A stretch of DNA of 14,468 bases from assembly GCA_963825865.1 (NCBI GenBank), contig CAWGVG010000031.1, positions 1 through 14,468 of the forward strand, given 5' to 3'. A model generated the notes under the pieces. The model was not told where the DNA came from. It did not search any database and saw only the letters and a list, made by a program, of their open reading frames with translations. Position 1 is the first letter of the stretch. Every line of letters begins with the position of its first letter. Shown here one piece after another: positions 1,618 through 14,468 of this stretch. The stretch comes from an uncultured Nitrososphaeraceae archaeon (GTDB lineage Archaea; Thermoproteota; Nitrososphaeria; Nitrososphaerales; Nitrososphaeraceae). The position numbers were made by a program, and so were the translations under genes.

Positions 1618-2570
1618 TTATTGCACTTGAGAGTAGGGTTCCATTAGTAGAACAGTCCATGTGTTGGATAGTATTTTTGCGGGAGAATATCCAACAAGCA
1701 TCTTTGTATCATTAACTACTTCAATATTGTATCCAGACTTACCAGAGATAGCATCTTTAAAACTTTGTAGATTAGCAAAAGATTCTGGAGTCTTTGAAGT
1801 TGTGAATCTGAATCAGCCACTTTCTGACCCTGGCTATCAATGTATACTATACGTTCCAAGGATGAAGAGATTGAAGATATCTGTCAAATACGCTAAATTC
1901 TAGTGCACCATCCCATACTCCTATTAAAGATCCATCTTTGTCAGAATGTATTGGCACTGCAATAACTGATACTCTCTTTCCTGTAGCCTTGGATACAATC
2001 ATATTTCCAAGGAAGGCATCTTTTGTTTCAATTGCTCCTTTATGGTAGTCTCTAAATGAAATTATTTTGTGTAAGATTGAGTTGGCGCCAATAGGGTCTG
2101 TCATGTACATATCTCCATTGGGAAGAAGGAAAGATATTCCAGCAAAATCATCATCAGCTTTCAAAATAGCATCTGCAATATTTCTTTTCGCAACATCTAT
2201 ATCATTGGCAATACCATGTAGACTACTATTGATTTTATCAGCATATTTAGCATTACCTACTTGTGGTAACATACTTGTTACCTTGAGATGGTGCTGCTGA
2301 GTTATTTAGACTCTGACCTAAGCTATTAGCCAAAACTTTTGCAATTGTAACTTTATCAGCTTGCGACTGATTTTGAAGGTTTATAGTATTATCATTATTT
2401 TGGGCGTTTGCATTAGGTAAATGAAGGATATATGGGCTTATTGATAGTAACGATAGTGTCAAAACTGTTATGCCAAGAATTACGGACAGGACTTTCTGCT
2501 CTTCTCTGTCCTCCTTTGTCCAGTGATATTCAACATGATTTTTCCTATAGAGATCGATTATGTTATGCAC
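1618..2570 (-). pseudogene. Membrane-anchored/secreted double Cache (dCache_1-like) ligand-binding protein, split by frameshifts
   Basis: N-terminal hydrophobic helix VLSVILGITVLTLSLLSI (ORF 2253..2570). Cache motifs FRDYHKGAIETKDAFLGNMIVSKATGKRVSVIAVPI...LIGVW (ORF 1847..2272). A second PDC-like subdomain is readable in other frames: ERIVYIDSQGQKVADS, then FKDAISGKSGYNIEVVNDTKMLVGYSPAKILSNTWTVLLMEPYSQVQ* ending at 1618. Indels near 2290, 2060-2095, 1860 and 1800. True start uncertain. Confidence 0.75.
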
Positions 2571-2984: not shown

Positions 2985-3440
2985 GTGTTTCTTTTCTTAC
3001 GGGCACGCATTGTATCTATTACCGATATTATGGATAATAAATTTGGTCATCACTGGCAGACTGGTGTTGCTCGTGATGTACAAGAGGCTATCCGAAATTT
3101 TCTCAAATTACTACATAGACATTGGAACACCCAGTGGTGTCTATTGAGTGGCGACATAAATATTGTTCCTGTAAGACACGTACTTGGAAATGAAAGTTGG
3201 TATTCTATACCTAAGGAAGATAAACTTGAACCTGATGAAGGAAACTACTACATTCATGTTCTACAAGATAAAATGCCTCTGTTATCCTTTCGTTCAATGG
3301 GGTGGTGGAAAGACACAGCTCTTAGCGTAATTATATGCTCTTGTTTTGTCCTGCTTGCAATAAATCACATGAAGGCAGTTTTGGAGACAACTGCGCTGAA
3401 TGGAAATGCCAACACAATGATAGTTACTTTATTTAGGTAA
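2985..3440 (+). pseudogene. Fragment resembling the N-terminal part of a C25 (gingipain-family) cysteine peptidase domain
   Basis: DVQEAIRNFLKLLHRHWNTQWCLLSGDINIVPVR resembles the C25 motif IR.FLK.....W...YVLL.GD...VP.R. No signal peptide or catalytic His/Cys region follows, and the last third of the ORF looks unrelated. Confidence 0.5.
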
Positions 3441-3597
3441 GTAAGTAAGCATAATAATAATCGTCATCTTATGAACAAATGAACACAATGCCCTTATCGA
3501 CAGAGTATATGAGAACTCAACGAGAGACCTTATATTCTCACAACCAATCATACGTAGAGTATCAAGAGAGTAAAGATAGTGTTGATACAGACTAGAA

Positions 3598-6075
3598 TTG
3601 AAAGAGGAAGAGGATGACGAGTATGGGAGAGATGATGAACAAAAAGATGAACTAAATCAACATTCTGAACAAACAGTAAGTGACTATTATGGAGATACTC
3701 CCCGACAACAAAAATATCATGCGAAGGAAGGCTATCGCAAATACAAAGGTGCTATAGTATTGGAACCTATAAGAGGTCTTCATCGTGATGTTTACCTGTT
3801 TGATGTTACCAGCCTATATCCTACGATGATAATAAAATATAATCTATCTCCTGAGACTGTTAATTGTTCCTGCTGTAAAAATGAACCTAAAGCCAAAGAG
3901 AAACTTACATCAGAGATTCTGAAGGATTGCAGTCATATACCAGCAAAAGATGAAGGTCTTTATTGGATATGTCAACGACGAAGAGGATTATTTGCAAAAA
4001 TTTTACAAGAACTAACAGAGCAGCGTATCAAATACAAAAATGCGGGTTTAGAAGTTGAAAGTCAAGCAATCAAAGCAATAATTAATAGTGGATATGGTGT
4101 CTTTGGTAATCCTTACTTCAAATACCACGATCCAAGGGTTGCGGAATTGGTAACAGCATTTGGTCGATATACATTAAATAAGATGCAAGCATTAGCTGAT
4201 GAGAGTGGTTTTTCCACTCTTTATGGTGATACTGATTCTTTATTTGTAAATAATGTAAAAAGCATTGATGAGAGCAGCAAGTTCATTGCTGAATGTAAGT
4301 CAAAGTTGGAGGTTGATGTCAGCCGTGATAAAATGTTCAGCAAATTAGTCCTTGTTGGCAAAAAGCACTACATTGGAATACCGTCTGATCCAACTAAAGA
4401 GCCGATCATCAAAGGAATGGAAGGGATAAAATCAGATAGGCCTGAATTTATTCATAGGGCGTTCAGACAGCTGGTAGAGGCCATCAAAAATAGCGTTAGT
4501 CCGATTCCTAAATTAAAGCAAGCCTTATATCAATTAGAAAATAGACAAATTGCTCCAGAACTGCTTGCTATATCTTTAGTTATGCGAAAGAATCTAGAGG
4601 AATATGATCAGGTTTGTAAACAGAGCAGATTGGGCTCTAAACTTAGATTACGCAAAGGCGATACTCTTGTCTATTATAAATGTGACATAGTCGAGACTGT
4701 TTATGATTCAAAGAAGAAGCAAGATGTGCTGAAAAGGATTTATGAGTCGGAGAATCCACAGGACATTAGTTACGCCGCTTACAAAAAGATGTTTGTAAAT
4801 AATGTTAAAGATGTTCTAGAGATTTTGCGTTATGATATAGAGAAAGATTTACTAGATGTAAATAAAACACAATTAATTGAGAGCAGTCACTTAAATACTA
4901 CCAATGTCACTAATAGTGCTACTGCCATAGCTACAAACCAGATTGTGCATAAGGTTACCATTGAACAGAAACAAATGAAGCAACTGGTATTAGAAGGAAT
5001 AGAACTTATTTTATCACTCTTTGTTGCAGTCGTACAGCAAAGATTATTTCCAAGGACCATCATGACAAAACACACCAAAGGGCAAATTGTAGTAAATAGC
5101 AAGGAGGAGGTTGTGCATTATTTTGAAATTGCCGGTTATGAAGACTGCCGAATAAATGCATATCCAACATTTTTATCGAAGGCTGAGGAACAAGATTTCA
5201 AAAAAGGAATCAACCTGAATTTGTTTGCGCCCAACATCCTTTTCATTGACTTGGATGCAAAAAGATTCAAGTCTGATAAAGAACTTCAACATTCATTAAA
5301 CCAAATTCTAAAGAATATCGCTTATCTTTTACATGATGTTGAGCCTTTGGTATTATGGTCCGGCCATGGTTATCATGTTGTAATTCCCGTCAATTGCAAA
5401 GAAGCATTAGAACACTTTCAGGAGTTCGCACAATATACTAGCGAACCTTCAAAAGAGTTTTTACAATTTGCAGAGCGCCATTTATCATTTAATAAAGCCG
5501 ATCCTGCAAACAATCCGTCTTTCAAATCCTGTTTGCTTAGAGTACCATACACATTTAATTCTAAATGTATTGGTGAATGGGTAGACGCAGAGGTCAAAAT
5601 AATTCAGAGGTTGGACAGCTCTAAGCCGTTACCAAACATAGATAACTTACTAATTGAGTTTCAGACATTCCTTGTAGATCAAAAGTTGAAAGCAGAAATT
5701 AAGCAAGAAAATAGAAGTAAGAGGCACTCTAGATTCAGCCCGATTCCTATAACCAATACAATTCCATATGTGGAACGACTCCTCGAAATGTCGCTGAAAG
5801 ATTATCGGAAGATCTCAATATCTCTAATACTGGCGCCGTATTTTGTAAATATAAAAAAGCTTTCTGATACTGATTCTTTTAGTAAGATAAAACAATGGGT
5901 TTTAAAGTGTAATGATGTTAGAAAGTTAGAACCATCTTTAGAATACCTTGATGGCATAATTCACAAAGCAATAGAGAGAGCAAGAGAAACAGGCATAAAG
6001 CCTTTGAAGCTTGAAGAGACCCTGCACTATAAAAATACAGAATTATATAACTTGTTACATCAATCCAAAAGATGA
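3598..6075 (+). CDS. Family B DNA polymerase core fused to an archaeo-eukaryotic primase catalytic domain and a PriX-like domain
   Basis: PolB: YKGAIVLEP, motif A FDVTSLYP (3799-3822), motif B QAIKAIINSGYG (4063-4098), motif C YGDTDSLF (4222-4245), KKHY and IKGME. AEP: motif I FIDLD (5242-5256), motif II WSGHGYH (5356-5376), motif III D(5500)...LLRVP. PriX-like: IPYVERLLEMSLKDYRKISISLILAPYFVNIKK from about 5761. TTG start uncertain. Confidence 0.9.
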   Translation: MKEEEDDEYGRDDEQKDELNQHSEQTVSDYYGDTPRQQKYHAKEGYRKYKGAIVLEPIRGLHRDVYLFDVTSLYPTMIIKYNLSPETVNCSCCKNEPKAKEKLTSEILKDCSHIPAKDEGLYWICQRRRGLFAKILQELTEQRIKYKNAGLEVESQAIKAIINSGYGVFGNPYFKYHDPRVAELVTAFGRYTLNKMQALADESGFSTLYGDTDSLFVNNVKSIDESSKFIAECKSKLEVDVSRDKMFSKLVLVGKKHYIGIPSDPTKEPIIKGMEGIKSDRPEFIHRAFRQLVEAIKNSVSPIPKLKQALYQLENRQIAPELLAISLVMRKNLEEYDQVCKQSRLGSKLRLRKGDTLVYYKCDIVETVYDSKKKQDVLKRIYESENPQDISYAAYKKMFVNNVKDVLEILRYDIEKDLLDVNKTQLIESSHLNTTNVTNSATAIATNQIVHKVTIEQKQMKQLVLEGIELILSLFVAVVQQRLFPRTIMTKHTKGQIVVNSKEEVVHYFEIAGYEDCRINAYPTFLSKAEEQDFKKGINLNLFAPNILFIDLDAKRFKSDKELQHSLNQILKNIAYLLHDVEPLVLWSGHGYHVVIPVNCKEALEHFQEFAQYTSEPSKEFLQFAERHLSFNKADPANNPSFKSCLLRVPYTFNSKCIGEWVDAEVKIIQRLDSSKPLPNIDNLLIEFQTFLVDQKLKAEIKQENRSKRHSRFSPIPITNTIPYVERLLEMSLKDYRKISISLILAPYFVNIKKLSDTDSFSKIKQWVLKCNDVRKLEPSLEYLDGIIHKAIERARETGIKPLKLEETLHYKNTELYNLLHQSKR

Positions 6076-6288
6076 CGTGACTATATGACCGTTATATGTG
6101 AACCCTTTTACGTAATGGGCCCAAGCAGATATGATTCCTATCAGCCGGTATTAAAAAAACCTTGGAAAGAAACCTTCATACATAGGTCTAGAATAATGAT
6201 AACCATAACCGTGGTAATTTCTAAAACCTAAAGAGGAGTTATAGAAAGGATAAAAAATTTTCTGTCTATTGTTATTATTGCTGATATA

Positions 6289-7386
6289 TTAAATTACACC
6301 TTTCCTATACAGAAAATAAACAGCTGCTACAGGCAGCGGGAATCCCAAATATAACAGCATATGCTATATAAACAAGCGTTATAGGGTTTACCTTGAAAGG
6401 ATTAGATGGATTATTGACACTCTTATATTGCGCTGCTAGTTGATTTGGCAGCAGCTGAGGAAATACTCGGATTATCGTATACAGTAGTATTAAATACAGT
6501 AAAAGATGTTTTTGCACCACCGACATTTTCAACTCTGATAGTTGTAGGACCTGAATTTGAAAATACATAATGCTGAAGATTCATTCCAATTTGTGAAATA
6601 CTTGGCACACGTTCAAGTTGTTTTCCATTTTGCATCAAGATAAAATCAAATGGCAAAAGATTCGGTTTATTGTTCGCAAGATCAAAGAAAACAACGAAGA
6701 AGGATATTTCCTTACCTGTCAGTAGAACTTGAGGATCCCAGCTTAACCCTACTTCAATTTTTCCATCACTTGTAAAATGGTAAACTGGAAATTTGCTTAT
6801 CCTTTTACCAGAAGCGTCAACAGGATAGTTTGGAATATTTTGTGCTTGTACACCTTGGACTGAAACTACACCTTCCATCCATGGATGAATAGTACAAAAA
6901 TAAGTATATGTTCCAGGATTAGTAAATGTATGTATCCATGATTCCCCAGTCTTAAACAGGCCACTATCAAATATTCCATTTGATGTTCCCCTTTTATTAT
7001 TCATCAAGCTTTCTATTCCAGCGCCAACTCCACTTGTAACAGTATGAGCTTCTGTGTCTTGGTTTATCCATTTAATGGTATCATTTGTATGTATTGTTAT
7101 CTGTCTTGGAAAATACCATTGTCTTGGACCTAGCTTGGTAATATCGACCTCTGGATTTGCTGAGCCTTTTGGTATTGTGACATTAAATGACTTTCCTCCA
7201 GAGGAAGAATCGGCATATGCAAGGTGATAATAATAATAGGAAGAAGAATAATTATTATCATCATCGTTGTCACCGATTTTCTTATAAAAGAAGAAGGACA
7301 ATGATGAATTGATCGAGCTAGTAAAAATAGAAAGAGTGAGAAGAAAATAATAATAGAGATGAAAAAAGAAAAAATTTATGGTTCAT
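6289..7386 (-). CDS. Secreted, C-terminally membrane-anchored cupredoxin (plastocyanin/azurin-like) domain protein, frameshifted
   Basis: Type-1 Cu ligands AHTVTSG...YFCTIHPWM, plus FDSG. A probable ATG at 7386 with signal-like MNHKFFLFSSLLL needs one indel in a T run. The C-terminal helix ITLVYIAYAVIFGIPAAVAAVYFLYRKGVI* (stop 6289-6291) needs indels near 6445 and 6330. Main ORF 6423..7301. Confidence 0.85.
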
Positions 7387-7591
7387 ATAATTATTGTTAT
7401 GATTTATGAGGTAATTGTTATTATAGAATCCACTGAGCCATCAGTATATTCAAATATGATATGGGCATATGATGAAAATGCCTCTTCATCTATGGTAACA
7501 TTAGAAGTTTGCTTCATCCCAGCATCATATATGTCTAGTTGTAAACAAGTTATATTAACCAATATGAAAAAGTATGTACGTCTATAACAAA

Positions 7592-9025
7592 CTATTTGGC
7601 TTCTGCAAAGTTTTCCTTGATATATGTCTTTAGTCTTTGTGCATCGGTATTGTTTACAAGTATATCTTCATTGAATACATTCTTCTTTTTTCCCTTGGAT
7701 GCTCTTACCTTAATGACGTATTCATTTTCTGCCTTGCGAACTATCTCTATTCTCAAGTCTGGTCCTTTAACCAGCATACCTTTTATACCTTGGGCTTCAA
7801 GAATAATGTTATCATCATCTGTAGTGTTTGGGCGTTTACGAGGTTTATCAAATTCTAAGTTAAATCTGTTGATTCTATCTTCTATCATTAATTTAAGCTT
7901 GCCAGCTTCTTTTTCAATCCTCATAATATATTTCTCCAGACTCTCTATTTCGATTAACTGAGCAGAAGAAGAGGCACTTTGATTTGAAGAGGATACAGAT
8001 GAAGAAGATTCTTGTAAACTTTGTTCTTGTTTGTTTTGTAAACCTCGACTATCCCACACCATTCCTTCTCTAGCTACAGTTATTCTGAATTTGCCCTCGC
8101 TTCCTATAATTTGAAGATGTGAATCTATTACTCTTTGCAGTTCATCTGTTGTCATAGCTTTAACAGGACCTCTAAACCACTGGTTTGTAGCTTCTTCAAA
8201 GTCTAAAAGACCTCTATAATGAACTATATAACATTCTTTGGCATTCCATCTTCTCACTAGTTCGAATGCTTCGCTTACAGAGATCATTCCAGTTTGAGGA
8301 TGAGGGTTATAGCTTTGTGTACCTAAAATAACAAGATCTGGATTCCACAACAAATTTTCATTCACATTGGGTAATGAAAGAAAATCCCATCCAATTATTA
8401 CTTTATGATTAGCAAGTTTCACCATGTATATGACAGACCCAGATGGAGAATTGTCACCATGGTCAGCCAAAACTGGTGTTATAAAAAAAGGACCTATTTC
8501 AAAGGATTTGTCTGGCTGTATTGTGTTAAACGATATTCTTTTATTATTATTATTATTGCCTTCTGAAAGCTCAGGAAATCTTTTGGTAAGCTGTTCAGAA
8601 CACTCTGCAGTACAGAATATCTTTAACTTCGACGATTCGTTATCGACCTTGTTTATCAATAAAGGCAGTTCTTTAATGTGATCATCATGTGAATGAGTTA
8701 TCAATACTGCATCAGGAATAGCTGGCGATAATGATAATGTCGATGAACTAAATCCAAGTTCAGAGATGCCTTTTTCAATACTTTTAACTATTCCTTGACC
8801 CACATCAACAAGAACATGAAAAATCTTATCTGTTTTATCTGCAGCAAACAAAGAGCAAGAAGTGTTTGTACTTATACCTTTTTGTTTTATCTCTGCTGCT
8901 CTTTCTGATTCTTCCTCACTACCTATTGTTGAAATATCTGGAAGAGTGCCATTTATCCTTACTAGTAATTGATCGCCTGCAAGTATCTTAGAAGGAGAAG
9001 GGATTTGTGAATTTAACATATTCAT
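7592..9025 (-). CDS. Metallo-beta-lactamase-fold hydrolase with an extra C-terminal domain
   Basis: Intact 477-aa ORF: VLVDVG, HxHxDH motif THSHDDH (about 8678-8698), ADHG, GWDF and IVHY. A Ser-rich linker leads to about 120 aa of charged C-terminal domain. Substrate unknown. Confidence 0.85.
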   Translation of the reverse strand: MNMLNSQIPSPSKILAGDQLLVRINGTLPDISTIGSEEESERAAEIKQKGISTNTSCSLFAADKTDKIFHVLVDVGQGIVKSIEKGISELGFSSSTLSLSPAIPDAVLITHSHDDHIKELPLLINKVDNESSKLKIFCTAECSEQLTKRFPELSEGNNNNNKRISFNTIQPDKSFEIGPFFITPVLADHGDNSPSGSVIYMVKLANHKVIIGWDFLSLPNVNENLLWNPDLVILGTQSYNPHPQTGMISVSEAFELVRRWNAKECYIVHYRGLLDFEEATNQWFRGPVKAMTTDELQRVIDSHLQIIGSEGKFRITVAREGMVWDSRGLQNKQEQSLQESSSSVSSSNQSASSSAQLIEIESLEKYIMRIEKEAGKLKLMIEDRINRFNLEFDKPRKRPNTTDDDNIILEAQGIKGMLVKGPDLRIEIVRKAENEYVIKVRASKGKKKNVFNEDILVNNTDAQRLKTYIKENFAEAK

Positions 9026-9193
9026 TTATTTTAATAAGACATATCAGATAAACATAACTATTAAATACATCTAATTATTTTAGATTTATTGTATATTTTT
9101 ATAAATCTTATAACTAAAATACTGCTTTTTTTGCTAAGACATTTGATTTATTTATCTATACGATTAAATATATCTTATTATTATGATAATAAA
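9026..9193. promoter_or_regulatory. Divergent AT-rich intergenic region with candidate archaeal TATA boxes
   Basis: TTAAATA at 9164-9170 lies about 24 nt upstream of ATG 9194. TTTAATA on the minus strand at 9059-9065 lies upstream of the MBL gene. The AT-rich background lowers specificity. Confidence 0.35.
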
Positions 9194-10531
9194 ATGCATA
9201 GGAGCAAACCTAAATCTTTTACAGTGGGCTTAATCTGCACCACCGCATTGATAGGATCTGCCTTTTCAATATCATCATCATTATCATTATTAATGTTATT
9301 TTCAGTAAAACCAGCCTTTGGTGATGGTTTAACTCAAGAAACACTTTCAGCTTCTTTTGGAAATAGGAAGGCTGATCTACTTATAAAAATGACCCCTCCT
9401 GTAGTTACAACTGAAACAATCACCCAACAAGGTCAAAAGCCGGTTATTCAATTTCGATTATTTGATCCAAGTACAAATCAAACATTCAAACATGTAACAT
9501 ATTTTATAACCATGGAAAAAGGAGATAAAAAATTAGTTGCTGATACTTTCCATGATCATAGCGGAGATTTACGAATAGAAGTGAAACCAATGAACACAAG
9601 TAAAATCACAGTTTATGGAGAGCAAGATCCCATATTGAATGCTTATACAGGGACACCCGAAAGTCCTGTAATTGCTGCAGGCCCAATCTTTTTGGAAGGT
9701 GGATTATATCACTTCAAAGTACAGATATCAACAATAGACTTTGATCGAACCCTTATTCCTGATAATCAGCAGCCAACTTATGATGGCTGGTTGAGTGTGG
9801 GGAATACTGAAAATCAGCACATAGCCATTGATGGAAAACAAATCCCAATTACGATAATTTCCTATTATGATAAGCTAAAGGACTTTAGCTTTAACAATAA
9901 AGACATGCAAATGAAGCTTGTTATGCCCTTTGATTGGGATCTAAGTAGATTGAACAAAGTCAAGATTTTTGTCCATGAAGAAATAAGCATTCCAAAGCCA
10001 AATGAATTTACTGCAAAGGCATCATATTCTGGTGCAGTAAATGGAATCGATGTAACAAAAAATCTTGTGCTTGATAACAGCAAACCTCAAAAAGATGTAA
10101 TTCATTTTATGTTGCCTAAAAACACAGTGATGCAGGTTGCAGACCAGGTAAACAAAAATGGACAAGCATCTACTCCATTGATGACATTTACTTTGCAGCC
10201 TGGAGGTGCAGCAAAGGGAGCTTTCTTCTTCTATGACAGGTAATATGACGAATCCAACAAATGCGACCAAATCACCAGGCGCTGTCGGAGGAGGCAATAT
10301 GACAAGCCCAAGTAGCGCCAAAGCAGCAAATGAAACAGCGGGTACGCAAACAGGCGGCAACAATTCAATGGCAGGTGGCAGCGAGCAATTGCTGGCTCTG
10401 GAAATGCAACGCAATCTGGCAATCAAACAACGACAGCAGCCAATCAACAATCAGCAAATCAAACTGGGAATAATAATGGAAACCCACTAGCCAAGATTCC
10501 GATAATAGGAAAGATTTTCGGCGGTAAATAA
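9194..10531 (+). CDS. Secreted thaumarchaeal-type cell-surface protein with low-complexity Asn/Thr/Gly-rich tail, frameshifted at the 3' end
   Basis: In-frame ATG at 9194, signal peptide ending VKPAFG/DGL, and a beta-rich body (TFHDHSG, GGLYHFKV, ISYYD). The tail continues through ORF 10206..10490 and a further frame ending GNPLAKIPIIGKIFGGK* (TAA 10529-10531). Confidence 0.7.
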
Positions 10532-11927: not shown

Positions 11928-11953
11928 TGTATATCTGCTTATCTGTGAGATAA

Positions 11954-12230
11954 GGCTCAGTAGAAATCATCACCAATGAGAAAAGGTTAGTCATTCTAAG
12001 CGTGTTGTAGGCGATGCATCTGAATGATAGTTCTCTATTCTGTGTTCTTACCACCTTGAAGTAATATGTTTACCAAATAGCCTCTTTATGATAGACATTA
12101 TGGTTTCATCCTTGTTACGTTGATTGTATAATGGTTTGAGATAATCACGTTTCATCTGTTTGCTGTAGCTCCCATGTGTTCTCCATATTGGAACGTATTG
12201 GTACCTTGGAGGAATGATGCTGTAAAAGAC
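11954..12230 (-). mobile_element. IS5-family insertion sequence remnant (transposase C-terminus plus probable terminal inverted repeat)
   Basis: SIIPPRYQYVPIWRTHG...LYNQRNKDETIMSIIKRLFGKHITSR, then in another frame VRTQNRELSFRCIAYN. This carries the Y-x2-R-x3-E-x6-K (YREK) signature. The end sequence GGCTCAGTAGAAA at 11954-11966 follows TAA. Confidence 0.8.
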
Positions 12231-12672: not shown

Positions 12673-12980
12673 ATATTAAAGAACACGAACAATGCTACTA
12701 CAATTAGCTCTTCCTGTCTGAAAAATATGGCTATTCTGTCAAAAGAATGTCAGCATACTTATGTTAATTGGTATAACTATAATGATGAGAGAATTATTTA
12801 TGAAATATATAGAAGCAATATACTGAAAGATAAGGGAAATCAGCATCAACTCTCTACTCTCAAGGTAAGCTAATGTACAATAATCTAGAGAAAAGATTAT
12901 GAGATGAAGCATTCATAAATTAACCGGATATATTTGAAGATTAGGTTTATCTAATAGTTTAACAGTATTCTATATTGTTA

Positions 12981-13375
12981 ATGCCAATGAAAAAAGCAAC
13001 ATACCTTGCAGCCGTCTTGATACTATCGCTTGGCATTATTTTAGGATGGGTAAAGTATGAGCTAGTATCAGTATATGCACAATCGAGTGCATCTGTTTCG
13101 ATTGTTAATGGAGCTTCATCTCCTAGCATTTCTAAACCCTACGATCCGTCACCCCTAACAATAAAGCCAGGTACATCTGTCACATGGACAAATAATGATT
13201 CTACTATCCATACAGTAACTTCAGGTCTTCCAGAACAAGGTGAAGTAGGTACTTTGTTCGACTCCAGCATTATGAGTCCTGGTAAGACCTTTACACATGT
13301 CTTTGATAAGACAGGCACTTTTGATTACAGCTGTATCTGCACCCATTCATGCGTGGACAGATAATAAGCAAGTAG
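12981..13375 (+). CDS. Secreted single-domain cupredoxin (plastocyanin-like blue copper protein) with one frameshift in the Cu loop
   Basis: Signal peptide, YDPSPLTIKPGTSVTWTN.D..IHTVTSG and FDS. Restoring one base at about 13335 turns CICTHS into C-x-LHPFMRGQIISK* (TAG 13373-13375), the C-x2-H-x2-M ligand loop. Confidence 0.85.
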
Positions 13376-13809
13376 TTAAAGGCCATCGATGTTGATAATT
13401 TTTCATCTTTCTAATATGAACTTTTGATTTTCTTTTCGTATTACTCTTTTTCTGAATAGGAGGAAGATGATTATCTTTGACTAGGAAAACTATATTGATC
13501 ATAATCACGTCACATTCTAAGATATGCTAGATGTAAACATTGACAGAGTGCTACTAACAAGGCTGGTACTTTTGGTTTCATTGCTTTTTGGGTCTTGTAT
13601 AGGAATAAGAATGGACAGAACACTTTGCAAGCGACATATCAGATGTTATATATTGCAGCGGTGGCAATTCTGGGTTAGGTATTAGAGAGGTAACTATGGA
13701 TGAGACATTAGATCTAATAATTAGGTTTATCTGCCTGATTCAATATACTTAATAATAATAATAATACTTAGACTAAAGATTATGGCAAAATGAGTGATTT
13801 ATTAAAAAA

Positions 13810-14437
13810 ATGAAAGCAGTATATATTGTAGATGATGCAAAAATTGCAAAAGTACCTCATTGATCCAATGCGAAGAGCTATTCTAGGTCTACTCAGGCAA
13901 AGGCCTATGACACAGGCAGGATTGGCTAATGAATTGGGGTTGACAGCAGCTTCTCTTAATTATCATATGAATATACTTAGATCTAAAAAATTGGTAACTA
14001 TAGCAAAGAAAGAAGTCGAAAGACATAGAATAATGCAAATATTTTTCTCAACAACAGCATATCTATTTGTATACGATTTAGATTCATTGCCAAAAAGTAT
14101 TGCTCGATATTTCTATCCTGTTAGCCTTGAAAGAGCAAGAGCAGTAGTTGTATCTTTGCATATGTTGAATAGAAAAGTCCTGTCATCATCATCATCATCA
14201 TCATCATCATCACCACAATCTTCAGTGTATACTATCGACCAGACTCCAGAATCTATTGATGCGATATCAGAAAATCTATCTCGATTTCTTGTTAAAACTG
14301 CCAAGTCTTATGAAGATAAGGTTGTTAATCATGGTGATGAGAGCATTATTTATGAAATTTATTCAAAAGCATTAAGCAGTTTCCTCAAAGAGAAAAATAT
14401 CAGAAACTCCCTACTAGTAAGAAAACCGACATCATAG
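13810..14437 (+). CDS. ArsR-type winged-helix transcriptional regulator
   Basis: LIDPMRRAILGLLRQRPMTQAGLANELGLTAASLNYHMNILRSKKLV is an HTH_20/ArsR pattern. The likely true start is ATG 13810 (MKAVYIVDDAKIAKV), which needs one indel at about 13855. Confidence 0.8.
14183..14212 (+). repeat. (TCA)10 perfect trinucleotide repeat encoding poly-Ser
   Basis: Ten tandem TCA units read directly inside the regulator ORF. Confidence 0.95.
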
Positions 14438-14468
14438 ACTAAGCCAGAAACCAAAATCTTGCATGTCA

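Follow-up and report, generated by a model that had tools for sequence, protein, structure and literature searches.

A single open frame with PolB, predicted primase and PriX-like parts in a Nitrososphaeraceae archaeon: probably the relic of an integrative element's replication gene

The proteins of the HelPrimPolB group are described as an SF3 helicase and a PrimPol fused N-terminally to a family B DNA polymerase, PolB (Kazlauskas et al. 2020, PMC7544198). GP55 of phage 1706 is reported to combine helicase, AEP primase, PolB and exonuclease activities with a helical domain that is essential for priming, and to synthesise DNA de novo (Zhang et al. 2025, PMC12205980). Here we analysed contig C31 of an uncultured Nitrososphaeraceae archaeon, a stretch of 14,468 bp that is referred to in its entirety as the window; the assembly to which it belongs (G000) has 62 contigs and 4.98 Mb and is 82% complete. 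One frame on the forward strand of the window carries a PolB part, a linker, an AEP (primase-polymerase) part and a PriX-like C-terminus. This frame is probably a recently 5'-truncated relic of a fused polB-primase gene that came from the replication module of an integrative element in Nitrososphaeraceae, in whose genomes the source elements are common, multi-copy and often decayed.

The PolB-AEP-PriX order is a variant of the known helicase-primase-PolB replicases. HelPrimPolB and GP55 already unite AEP primase and PolB in a single polypeptide, and the architecture, which the original prediction, made from the letters of the window, thought might be undescribed, therefore has precedents. What these proteins share with the window family, as far as their descriptions go, is an AEP primase, a helical accessory domain and PolB in a single chain. 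They are described as running from helicase through primase to PolB, in phage hosts, whereas the window family runs from PolB through AEP to PriX. The window family differs also in that the helicase is encoded by a separate upstream gene in the relatives, in that the lineage is archaeal, and in that the PolB is nearest to archaeal PolB1.

The AEP-PriX half has the same build as RepB' of RSF1010 and PolpTN2, in both of which a helix bundle is attached to the AEP domain; the description of PolpTN2 is of a PriL-related domain joined to a PriS-like one (PMC3973330). RepB' was the best structural match, and the helical domain of the window protein differs from those of RepB' and PolpTN2 in that it matches PriX profiles directly. 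We take pRN1 ORF904 to be a further element primase built of an AEP domain and a helix bundle. None of these three proteins is joined to a family B polymerase, unlike the window protein. In Sulfolobus PriSLX, PriX is a separate subunit of the cellular primase; the C-terminal 100 residues of the window protein match it by profile and by fold, whereas in the window protein PriX stands in cis with a divergent AEP domain that PriS profiles did not recognise. The PriCT and PriX domains are reportedly related to PriL.

Integrated elements of thaumarchaea are described as carrying their own replication genes, some of which encode PolB or primpol-S3H proteins (Krupovic et al. 2019, PMC6563490), and the likeness to the window family, within the scope of that description, lies in dedicated replication genes and, going by weak matches in two loci of relatives, a putative integrase. 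The available portion of that article mentions neither a helicase-PolB-AEP/PriX order nor a PolB-primase fusion, and its supplement may hold such records. Among the titles and abstract openings of the literature searched, no description of the PolB-AEP-PriX order was found; the supplements of the 2019 and 2020 papers may hold records of it. The piPolB of pipolins and the protein-primed PolB of casposons are likewise family B polymerases of self-replicating integrated elements. These polymerases need no primase, whereas in the window family a dedicated primase gene travels with polB. A pipolin or protein-primed reading of the window gene was rejected because PF03175 (DNA_pol_B_2) scored 21.3 bits, below its cut-off of 25.8, and because a primase gene accompanies polB. 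A casposon was rejected as well, since no Cas1 family appeared in Pfam scans of 13 window frames (E <= 0.01) or of 24 frames from the relatives' loci L081, L092 and L096 (E <= 0.001).

The frame extends over 825 codons from a TTG, or 829 codons from stop to stop beginning at 3586, and at the window's G+C content of ~35% a stop-free run of this size has a probability of ~2e-27. Profiles, structure model and motif positions agree that this one frame holds PolB motifs A, B and C, a linker, the AEP motifs and a PriX-like end (Table 1), as the original prediction had observed. Its description of the three PolB motifs as intact holds; the polymerase as a whole is incomplete, being without its N-terminal and exonuclease part. 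Pfam DNA_pol_B (PF00136) matched residues 43-407 with an E-value of 1.2e-35. Archaeal PolB1 was the closest polymerase in the structure bank, and the window polymerase aligned solely to residues 457-759 of Sulfolobus PolB1 (1s5j), which comprise palm, fingers and part of the thumb.

In full-length relatives, the N-terminal exonuclease region is separated from the polymerase part by an acidic spacer. The fused relatives P0003 (1129 aa), P0005 (1088 aa) and P0006 (1070 aa) begin with ~350 extra residues, which are followed by this spacer. A profile built from 33 polymerase-only relatives aligned at profile positions 169-277 with the exonuclease region of 1s5j (chain residues 314-419; i-E 5.9e-7), and FDLEW and YCxxDAH in the relatives can be read as Exo I- and Exo III-like motifs. 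The N-terminal and 3'-5' exonuclease domains ahead of the palm are absent from the window copy. In tblastn, P0003 matched the window from its residue 355 to residue 1127 (3700-6063) and P0005 from residue 287 to residue 1085 (3631-6072), and the N-terminal part of each (residues 1-354 in P0003) had no match in the whole window at E-values up to 10. Just two start codons precede motif A in the frame, TTG 3598 and a TTG at codon 55, and the earliest in-frame ATG is codon 77. Because the relatives' N-terminal part is unmatched, the frame starts within the acidic spacer directly after a TAG and the first ATG lies inside motif A, the gene is truncated at its 5' end, with the front third of the polymerase gene lost. 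With regard to an exonuclease subunit acting in trans, the PolB N-terminal pieces found elsewhere in the genome were just short ones (C15 187910-188380 and C12 64517-64735).

Table 1. Positions of the features of the open frame in the window and of the helicase gene in two loci of relatives
Feature	Position	Strand	Basis or remark
In-frame TAG closing the frame on the 5' side	3583..3585	+	Match to full-length relatives starts right after the TAG
Open frame with PolB palm-fingers-thumb, linker, AEP and PriX-like parts	3598..6075	+	TTG start, TGA stop
Acidic head LKEEEDDEYGRDDEQKDE	3598..3651	+	Aligns with the acidic spacer of relatives
Family B DNA polymerase domain	3724..4818	+	PF00136, profile positions 37-450 of 453; without N-terminal and exonuclease domains
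PolB motif A DVTSLYPTMI	3802..3831	+	Aligned to 1s5j
PolB motif B KAIINSGYGVFG	4072..4107	+	Aligned to 1s5j
PolB motif C YGDTDS	4222..4239	+	Aligned to 1s5j
Thr/Asn/Ser-rich, low-complexity linker of 40 residues	4855..4974	+	
In-frame ATG (Met460)	4975..4977	+	One residue ahead of the conserved KQLVLEG where stand-alone primases start aligning
Predicted AEP (primase-polymerase) catalytic domain	4975..5640	+	Motifs, model
AEP motif FIDLD	5242..5256	+	
AEP motif SGHGYH	5359..5376	+	
KADPANNP...CLLRVP	5494..5547	+	CLLRVP at 5530-5547
Long connecting helix (model residues 242-269), then low-confidence loop	5641..5724	+	Model
Segment repeated on contig C13 (67743-68157)	5680..6094	+	98.8% identity over 415 bp; PriX-only fragment with unrelated flanks
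PriX-like helical bundle	5767..6060	+	PF18689, NF033412; fold match to 4wyh and 5of3
Gene of 673-703 aa directly ahead of polB	L092:4195-6216; L096:2869-4980		Walker A, model

The linker corresponds to the C-terminal tail of PolB and the N-terminal tail of the primase in two-gene relatives, and the stop that separates the two is missing in the window. A TAA at 4892-4894, which the original prediction had singled out as a stop that might prove to interrupt the frame, is out of frame. Because the AEP part had no match among the sequence profiles (Pfam, NCBIfam, PHROGs, PDB sequences), its identity comes solely from the structure model. The AlphaFold2 model of 4918-6072 (residues 441-825), made from 31 relatives, had a mean pLDDT of 88. 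Its first two thirds matched the RepB' primase (3h20, E 2e-6), CAPP Prim-Pol, LigD polymerase domains, PriS and PrimPols, with a Foldseek probability of 1.00 for RepB' (3h20, 3h25) and CAPP Prim-Pol (7nqd), and the middle part of the protein is predicted from this to have the AEP fold. In AEP motifs I and II, D111, D113, G149, G151 and H153 (P0122 numbering) were unchanged in 31 of the 31 aligned relatives, as were D195 of KADPANNP, a candidate for the acidic residue of motif III, and R208 of LLRVP.

The C-terminal part was found by sequence profiles as well as by fold. Residues 724-821 matched Pfam PriX (PF18689) with an E-value of 2.5e-8 (34.5 bits, cut-off 25), and NCBIfam primase_PriX (NF033412) scored 57.3 bits (cut-off 50). 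The profile of the 31 relatives matched the PriX chains 4wyh (E 9e-9) and 5of3 (~1e-8), and the C-terminal ~100 residues of the model fit the Sulfolobus PriX fold with a TM-score of 0.76-0.79 on the target. Throughout the 611 homologues in this family (211-674 aa), the PriX-like domain was always fused in cis to AEP.

Reading through the PolB-primase junction is not confined to the window. It was seen in the long proteins P0003-P0006, in P0002 and P0026, which are internally deleted, and in a decayed copy on contig C12 of the same genome, so that the homologues do not all exist as two adjacent genes. Full-length fused proteins measured 1052-1129 aa, and the linkers of the fused sequences were related, not identical. 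The C12 copy (~51400-53500) is a full-length fused one whose frame is continuous over the junction; it has five stops in the polymerase part and a frameshift in the primase part, and remnants of the exonuclease region and the acidic spacer lie upstream of it. P0002 is the nearest relative of the window (91% identity over 351 PolB columns) and has a deletion of the AEP segment with FIDLD, and P0026 has lost the thumb, the linker and most of AEP. These losses indicate that the window's lineage does decay.

In a PolB tree of 63 rows, from which P0026 was left out as too short, the window clustered with P0002 and P0003 (SH-aLRT 94), with P0004 beside them, and P0005 and P0006 formed a second pair. 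The fused label required 2 changes on this tree against a mean of 5.9 for shuffled labels, and 0 of 500 shuffles were as low. The same pairs were seen again in the AEP tree, and the window grouped with P0003 in both trees. P0123 (374 aa), which is called as a stand-alone protein, was the sister of the window's primase half and begins with VHKVTI, like the window linker; it may be a gene with a GTG start, or it may belong to a fused frame that the end of its contig interrupts. We conclude that at least one lineage has passed the fusion on through real divergence, and that the fusion arose or was lost more than once. Repeated gain or loss would be easy, because in some loci a single stop separates two genes in the same frame.

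The fused form is a minority all the same. Searches with the primase half gave 611 stand-alone AEP-PriX proteins, most of them 375-385 aa long and starting shortly ahead of QLVLEG, and searches with the whole frame gave mainly polymerases of ~750-770 aa without a primase part. Among longer proteins with a primase part (675-2000 aa), 4 were found, three of which were the known fusions; P0006 was missed by that search. The polB-only and AEP-PriX relatives came from equally long contigs, and P0041 and P0173 have adjacent locus tags. The single-polypeptide form put forward in the original prediction is real, then, and recurs in independent sequences, whereas most homologues are encoded by two adjacent genes (611 stand-alone proteins against 4 long ones).

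Gene arrangement in other loci pointed the same way. One open frame across both parts was found in none of the 15 metagenome loci with both parts, a set that did not include the contigs encoding P0002-P0006. The primase frame was offset from polB in 12 of the 15, and in the 7 offset loci that were read out the stop-to-stop frames overlapped by 4-74 nt; in the remaining 3 (L089-L091) both parts lay in the same frame and were interrupted. In L089 (~3186), L090 (~2627), L170, L171 and L172, polB and AEP-priX occupy the same frame with one stop at the junction. The codon directly after this stop is Leu in L089, L090 and L170 (stop, then LS...), and Gln and Ile in L171 and L172. A stop followed immediately by a Leu codon suggests coupled termination and re-initiation. 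Single-stop junctions of this kind show how one substitution could fuse polB and AEP-priX.

Reference genomes gave a similar picture. Both parts were in one interrupted frame in G101, which has a single junction stop, and in G131 and G155, in each of which the matched stretch contains two stops, the junction stop and one more. None of the 6 reference-genome loci with polB directly upstream, among 80 loci found with the primase profile, had a single frame. When a junction-spanning query was searched against 201 genomes of the family, including the three unpublished genomes G034, G098 and G160, 99 genomes matched, nearly all by the primase part alone, and the sole genome that read through the junction was the one studied here, on C31 and C12. 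Of 7830 representatives at 50% identity, the best 150 included no fused form, and every one of them matched one half only. A decayed pair of polB and AEP-PriX was also found on a 1.95-Mb contig labelled as an Alphaproteobacteria metagenome-assembled genome (L076), which reflects either a labelling problem or a transfer.

The loci of relatives suggest where such a gene comes from. The gene order in the two long metagenome loci L092 and L096 is an integrase-like open reading frame (ORF), one gene on the opposite strand, an ORF of 673-703 aa, polB and AEP-priX. The integrase-like ORF (tyrosine integrase) lies upstream of the 673-703-aa ORF by 2.4 kb in L092 and by 2.0 kb in L096; a PHROG comparison, made for the L092 copy, gave an integrase match (1.3e-8). 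The 673-703-aa ORF had no match in Pfam, NCBIfam, PHROG or PDB sequences. It contains an invariant GxxGxxKS Walker A motif, and its model matched ASFV PrimPol, the SaPI5 primase-helicase and MPXV E5; because of the Walker A motif and these model matches, it appears to represent an unannotated family of D5-like SF3 helicases. We rejected P0267 (1402 aa) and P0242 (709 aa) on comparison as helicase-PolB or helicase-primase fusions with the L092 helicase. P0242 has a Walker A-like GRPAGGKT near its N-terminus and an AEP part (LFIDLD) near its C-terminus, and is unrelated to that helicase.

The helicase gene also precedes polB on C15, C21 and C7 of this genome and in L012, L089, L093 and L104. In the polB-less loci L024, L040, L047, L056 and L082, it shares a strand with the AEP-PriX open frame and is found 250-650 nt upstream. 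Judged by these loci, polB looks inserted, and the core module seems to be helicase plus AEP-PriX, with polB placed between them in one clade. This genome had 24 PolB matches, 10 of them with internal stops, as well as many copies and fragments of the integrase; neither helicase nor integrase had a match in the window. Taken together, the gene orders support membership of the window gene in the replication module of integrative mobile elements. This part of the proposal that it encodes a mobile-element replicase gains support from the helicase and the weak integrase in relatives, whereas for the copy in the window a relic is likelier than a working replicase. Overall, the observation of the original prediction is partly confirmed and its interpretation partly supported.

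From the domains we infer how an intact element would work. The helicase would unwind the DNA, after which a primer would be started by the AEP domain and the PriX-like bundle tethered to it. Crossing the flexible linker, 40-60 residues long, this primer would reach the active site of PolB within that chain, and PolB, which is primer-dependent, would extend it, in cis where the genes are fused. The single chain of 1052-1129 aa would have come about in one or a few lineages by loss of the stop between polB and AEP-priX.

The window copy is read as a relic rather than a working replicase because it has lost the helicase and the integrase as well as the first third of the polymerase gene. It keeps intact active-site motifs of polymerase and primase, and most likely cannot replicate an element by itself. 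Several observations weigh against this account of a decayed element gene. The remaining 825 codons show no visible decay, and the terminal branch of the window in the PolB tree is short (0.046). The AEP-PriX half retains 122 of 127 columns conserved at >=90%, a miss rate of 3.9% that equals the family median, and the PolB half retains 137 of 145 such columns (5.5% missed, against a median of 3.6%). Such retention, together with the short branch, fits either a very recent truncation or continued selection, and a working product is therefore possible. As to the element itself, the Pfam Phage_integrase matches of the integrase-like ORFs are weak (E 1e-3 and 1.3e-4, below the cut-off), the helicase model has low confidence (mean pLDDT 65, with residues 339-419 below 50), and the assignment to a mobile element comes from the gene content of the relatives' loci. 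In the AEP tree the fused label needs 4 changes, and 47 of 500 shuffles were as low; inheritance of the fusion is therefore less clean than the PolB tree suggests.

The truncated frame might still be translated, from TTG 3598 or the TTG at codon 55, to give an exonuclease-free self-priming polymerase that serves repriming or repair in the host or acts in trans for sister elements. Every PolB and AEP active-site motif is intact, both miss rates are in the family range, and 825 codons have stayed open in DNA of 35% G+C. We consider this rather unlikely, in view of the lack of an ATG ahead of motif A and of a helicase partner in the window, the absence of N-terminal and exonuclease regions that every full-length relative has, and the domain losses of P0002 and P0026. 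An internal start at ATG 4975 is possible as well and would give a primase-only product, so that only this half, an AEP-PriX protein of 366 residues, would be functional and the polymerase upstream would be dead weight. Met460 is placed near the starts of stand-alone primases, conserved columns are retained at the family median in the AEP-PriX half and slightly less well in the PolB half, and stand-alone AEP-PriX without polB, to judge from the 201 genomes, is the commonest state of the family. A polymerase part that is stop-free over 459 codons would be unexpected if it had long been free of selection, and this speaks against the primase-only alternative, which we consider unlikely.

The single frame would be an artefact if a stop or an indel in the linker had been missed or if the contig were chimeric. 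Window segments 1-2477, 6871-9325 and 13435-14468 resemble other contigs of the assembly, with identities of 93.6% (C49, to its end), 96.3% (C18), 99.4% (start of C32) and 97.3% (C30). Identities of 93-99% make collapsed repeats or strain mixtures likely; the assembly seems to contain large repeats or variants from different strains, and C31 may be a haplotig. One contig, from run X3, carries over 4850-4949 a linker of equal size with a diverged sequence. On the other side, a contig from an independent study (run X5, record 25) spans 4631-5394 without gaps, seven other sequences with related linkers read through the junction (the database proteins P0002-P0006 and P0026, and the C12 copy from this assembly), and the PolB and AEP halves agree on the nearest fused relatives. 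The contigs of four runs over 3300-6100 are short and inform on the covered parts other than 3440-3600; 40 of their 128 differences were read, and stops by substitution may occur in other samples. An artefact is very improbable on this evidence, and a recently truncated relic of a fused element gene is the reading we prefer.

A relic of this kind is most likely of little interest by itself, and the intact relatives matter more. Tentatively, and with the balance of probability somewhat against it, P0003-type fused proteins (exonuclease, PolB, linker, AEP, PriX) could be active one-chain replicases of an undescribed family of integrative elements in soil ammonia-oxidising archaea, forming a two-protein replisome with the D5-like helicase. 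The split, one-stop and fused forms would in that case show how a multidomain replicase was born by loss of a stop, in the reverse domain order to HelPrimPolB, and the window copy, as a recent derivative, might still prime and extend DNA without proofreading. If the fused proteins are active, they would be an archaeal, independently built counterpart of the phage one-chain replicases, with the opposite order of primase and polymerase and a PriX-type priming module. Overlapping separate genes, in-frame pairs divided by one stop and fused genes are all represented in the family, which offers a natural series for how primer hand-off changes once primase and polymerase share one chain. The helicase, PolB and AEP-PriX also make up a widespread unannotated replication module in Nitrososphaeraceae, whose primase is labelled just 'PriX' by annotation pipelines.

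The other genes of the window, in a Pfam scan of its 13 frames, encode cupredoxins, a metallo-beta-lactamase-fold protein and an ArsR-type regulator. No mobile-element gene was among the neighbouring frames 1847-2272 (-), 6423-7301 (-), 7592-9025 (-), 12975-13364 (+) and 13832-14437 (+), whose products are a piece of a dCache domain that scores under the Pfam cut-off, two copper proteins of the cupredoxin type, a protein with the metallo-beta-lactamase fold and an HTH regulator of the ArsR/MarR type. No tRNA gene that could be an integration target was found in the window. Contigs of runs X4 and X3 have loose ends at 5680 and 6094, the limits of the segment repeated on C13, and these were matched to the C13 flanks by eye. 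At 11941-12224 the window contains a repeat of ~270 nt that has copies of 73-84% identity on >15 contigs of this genome and may be a small non-autonomous mobile element.

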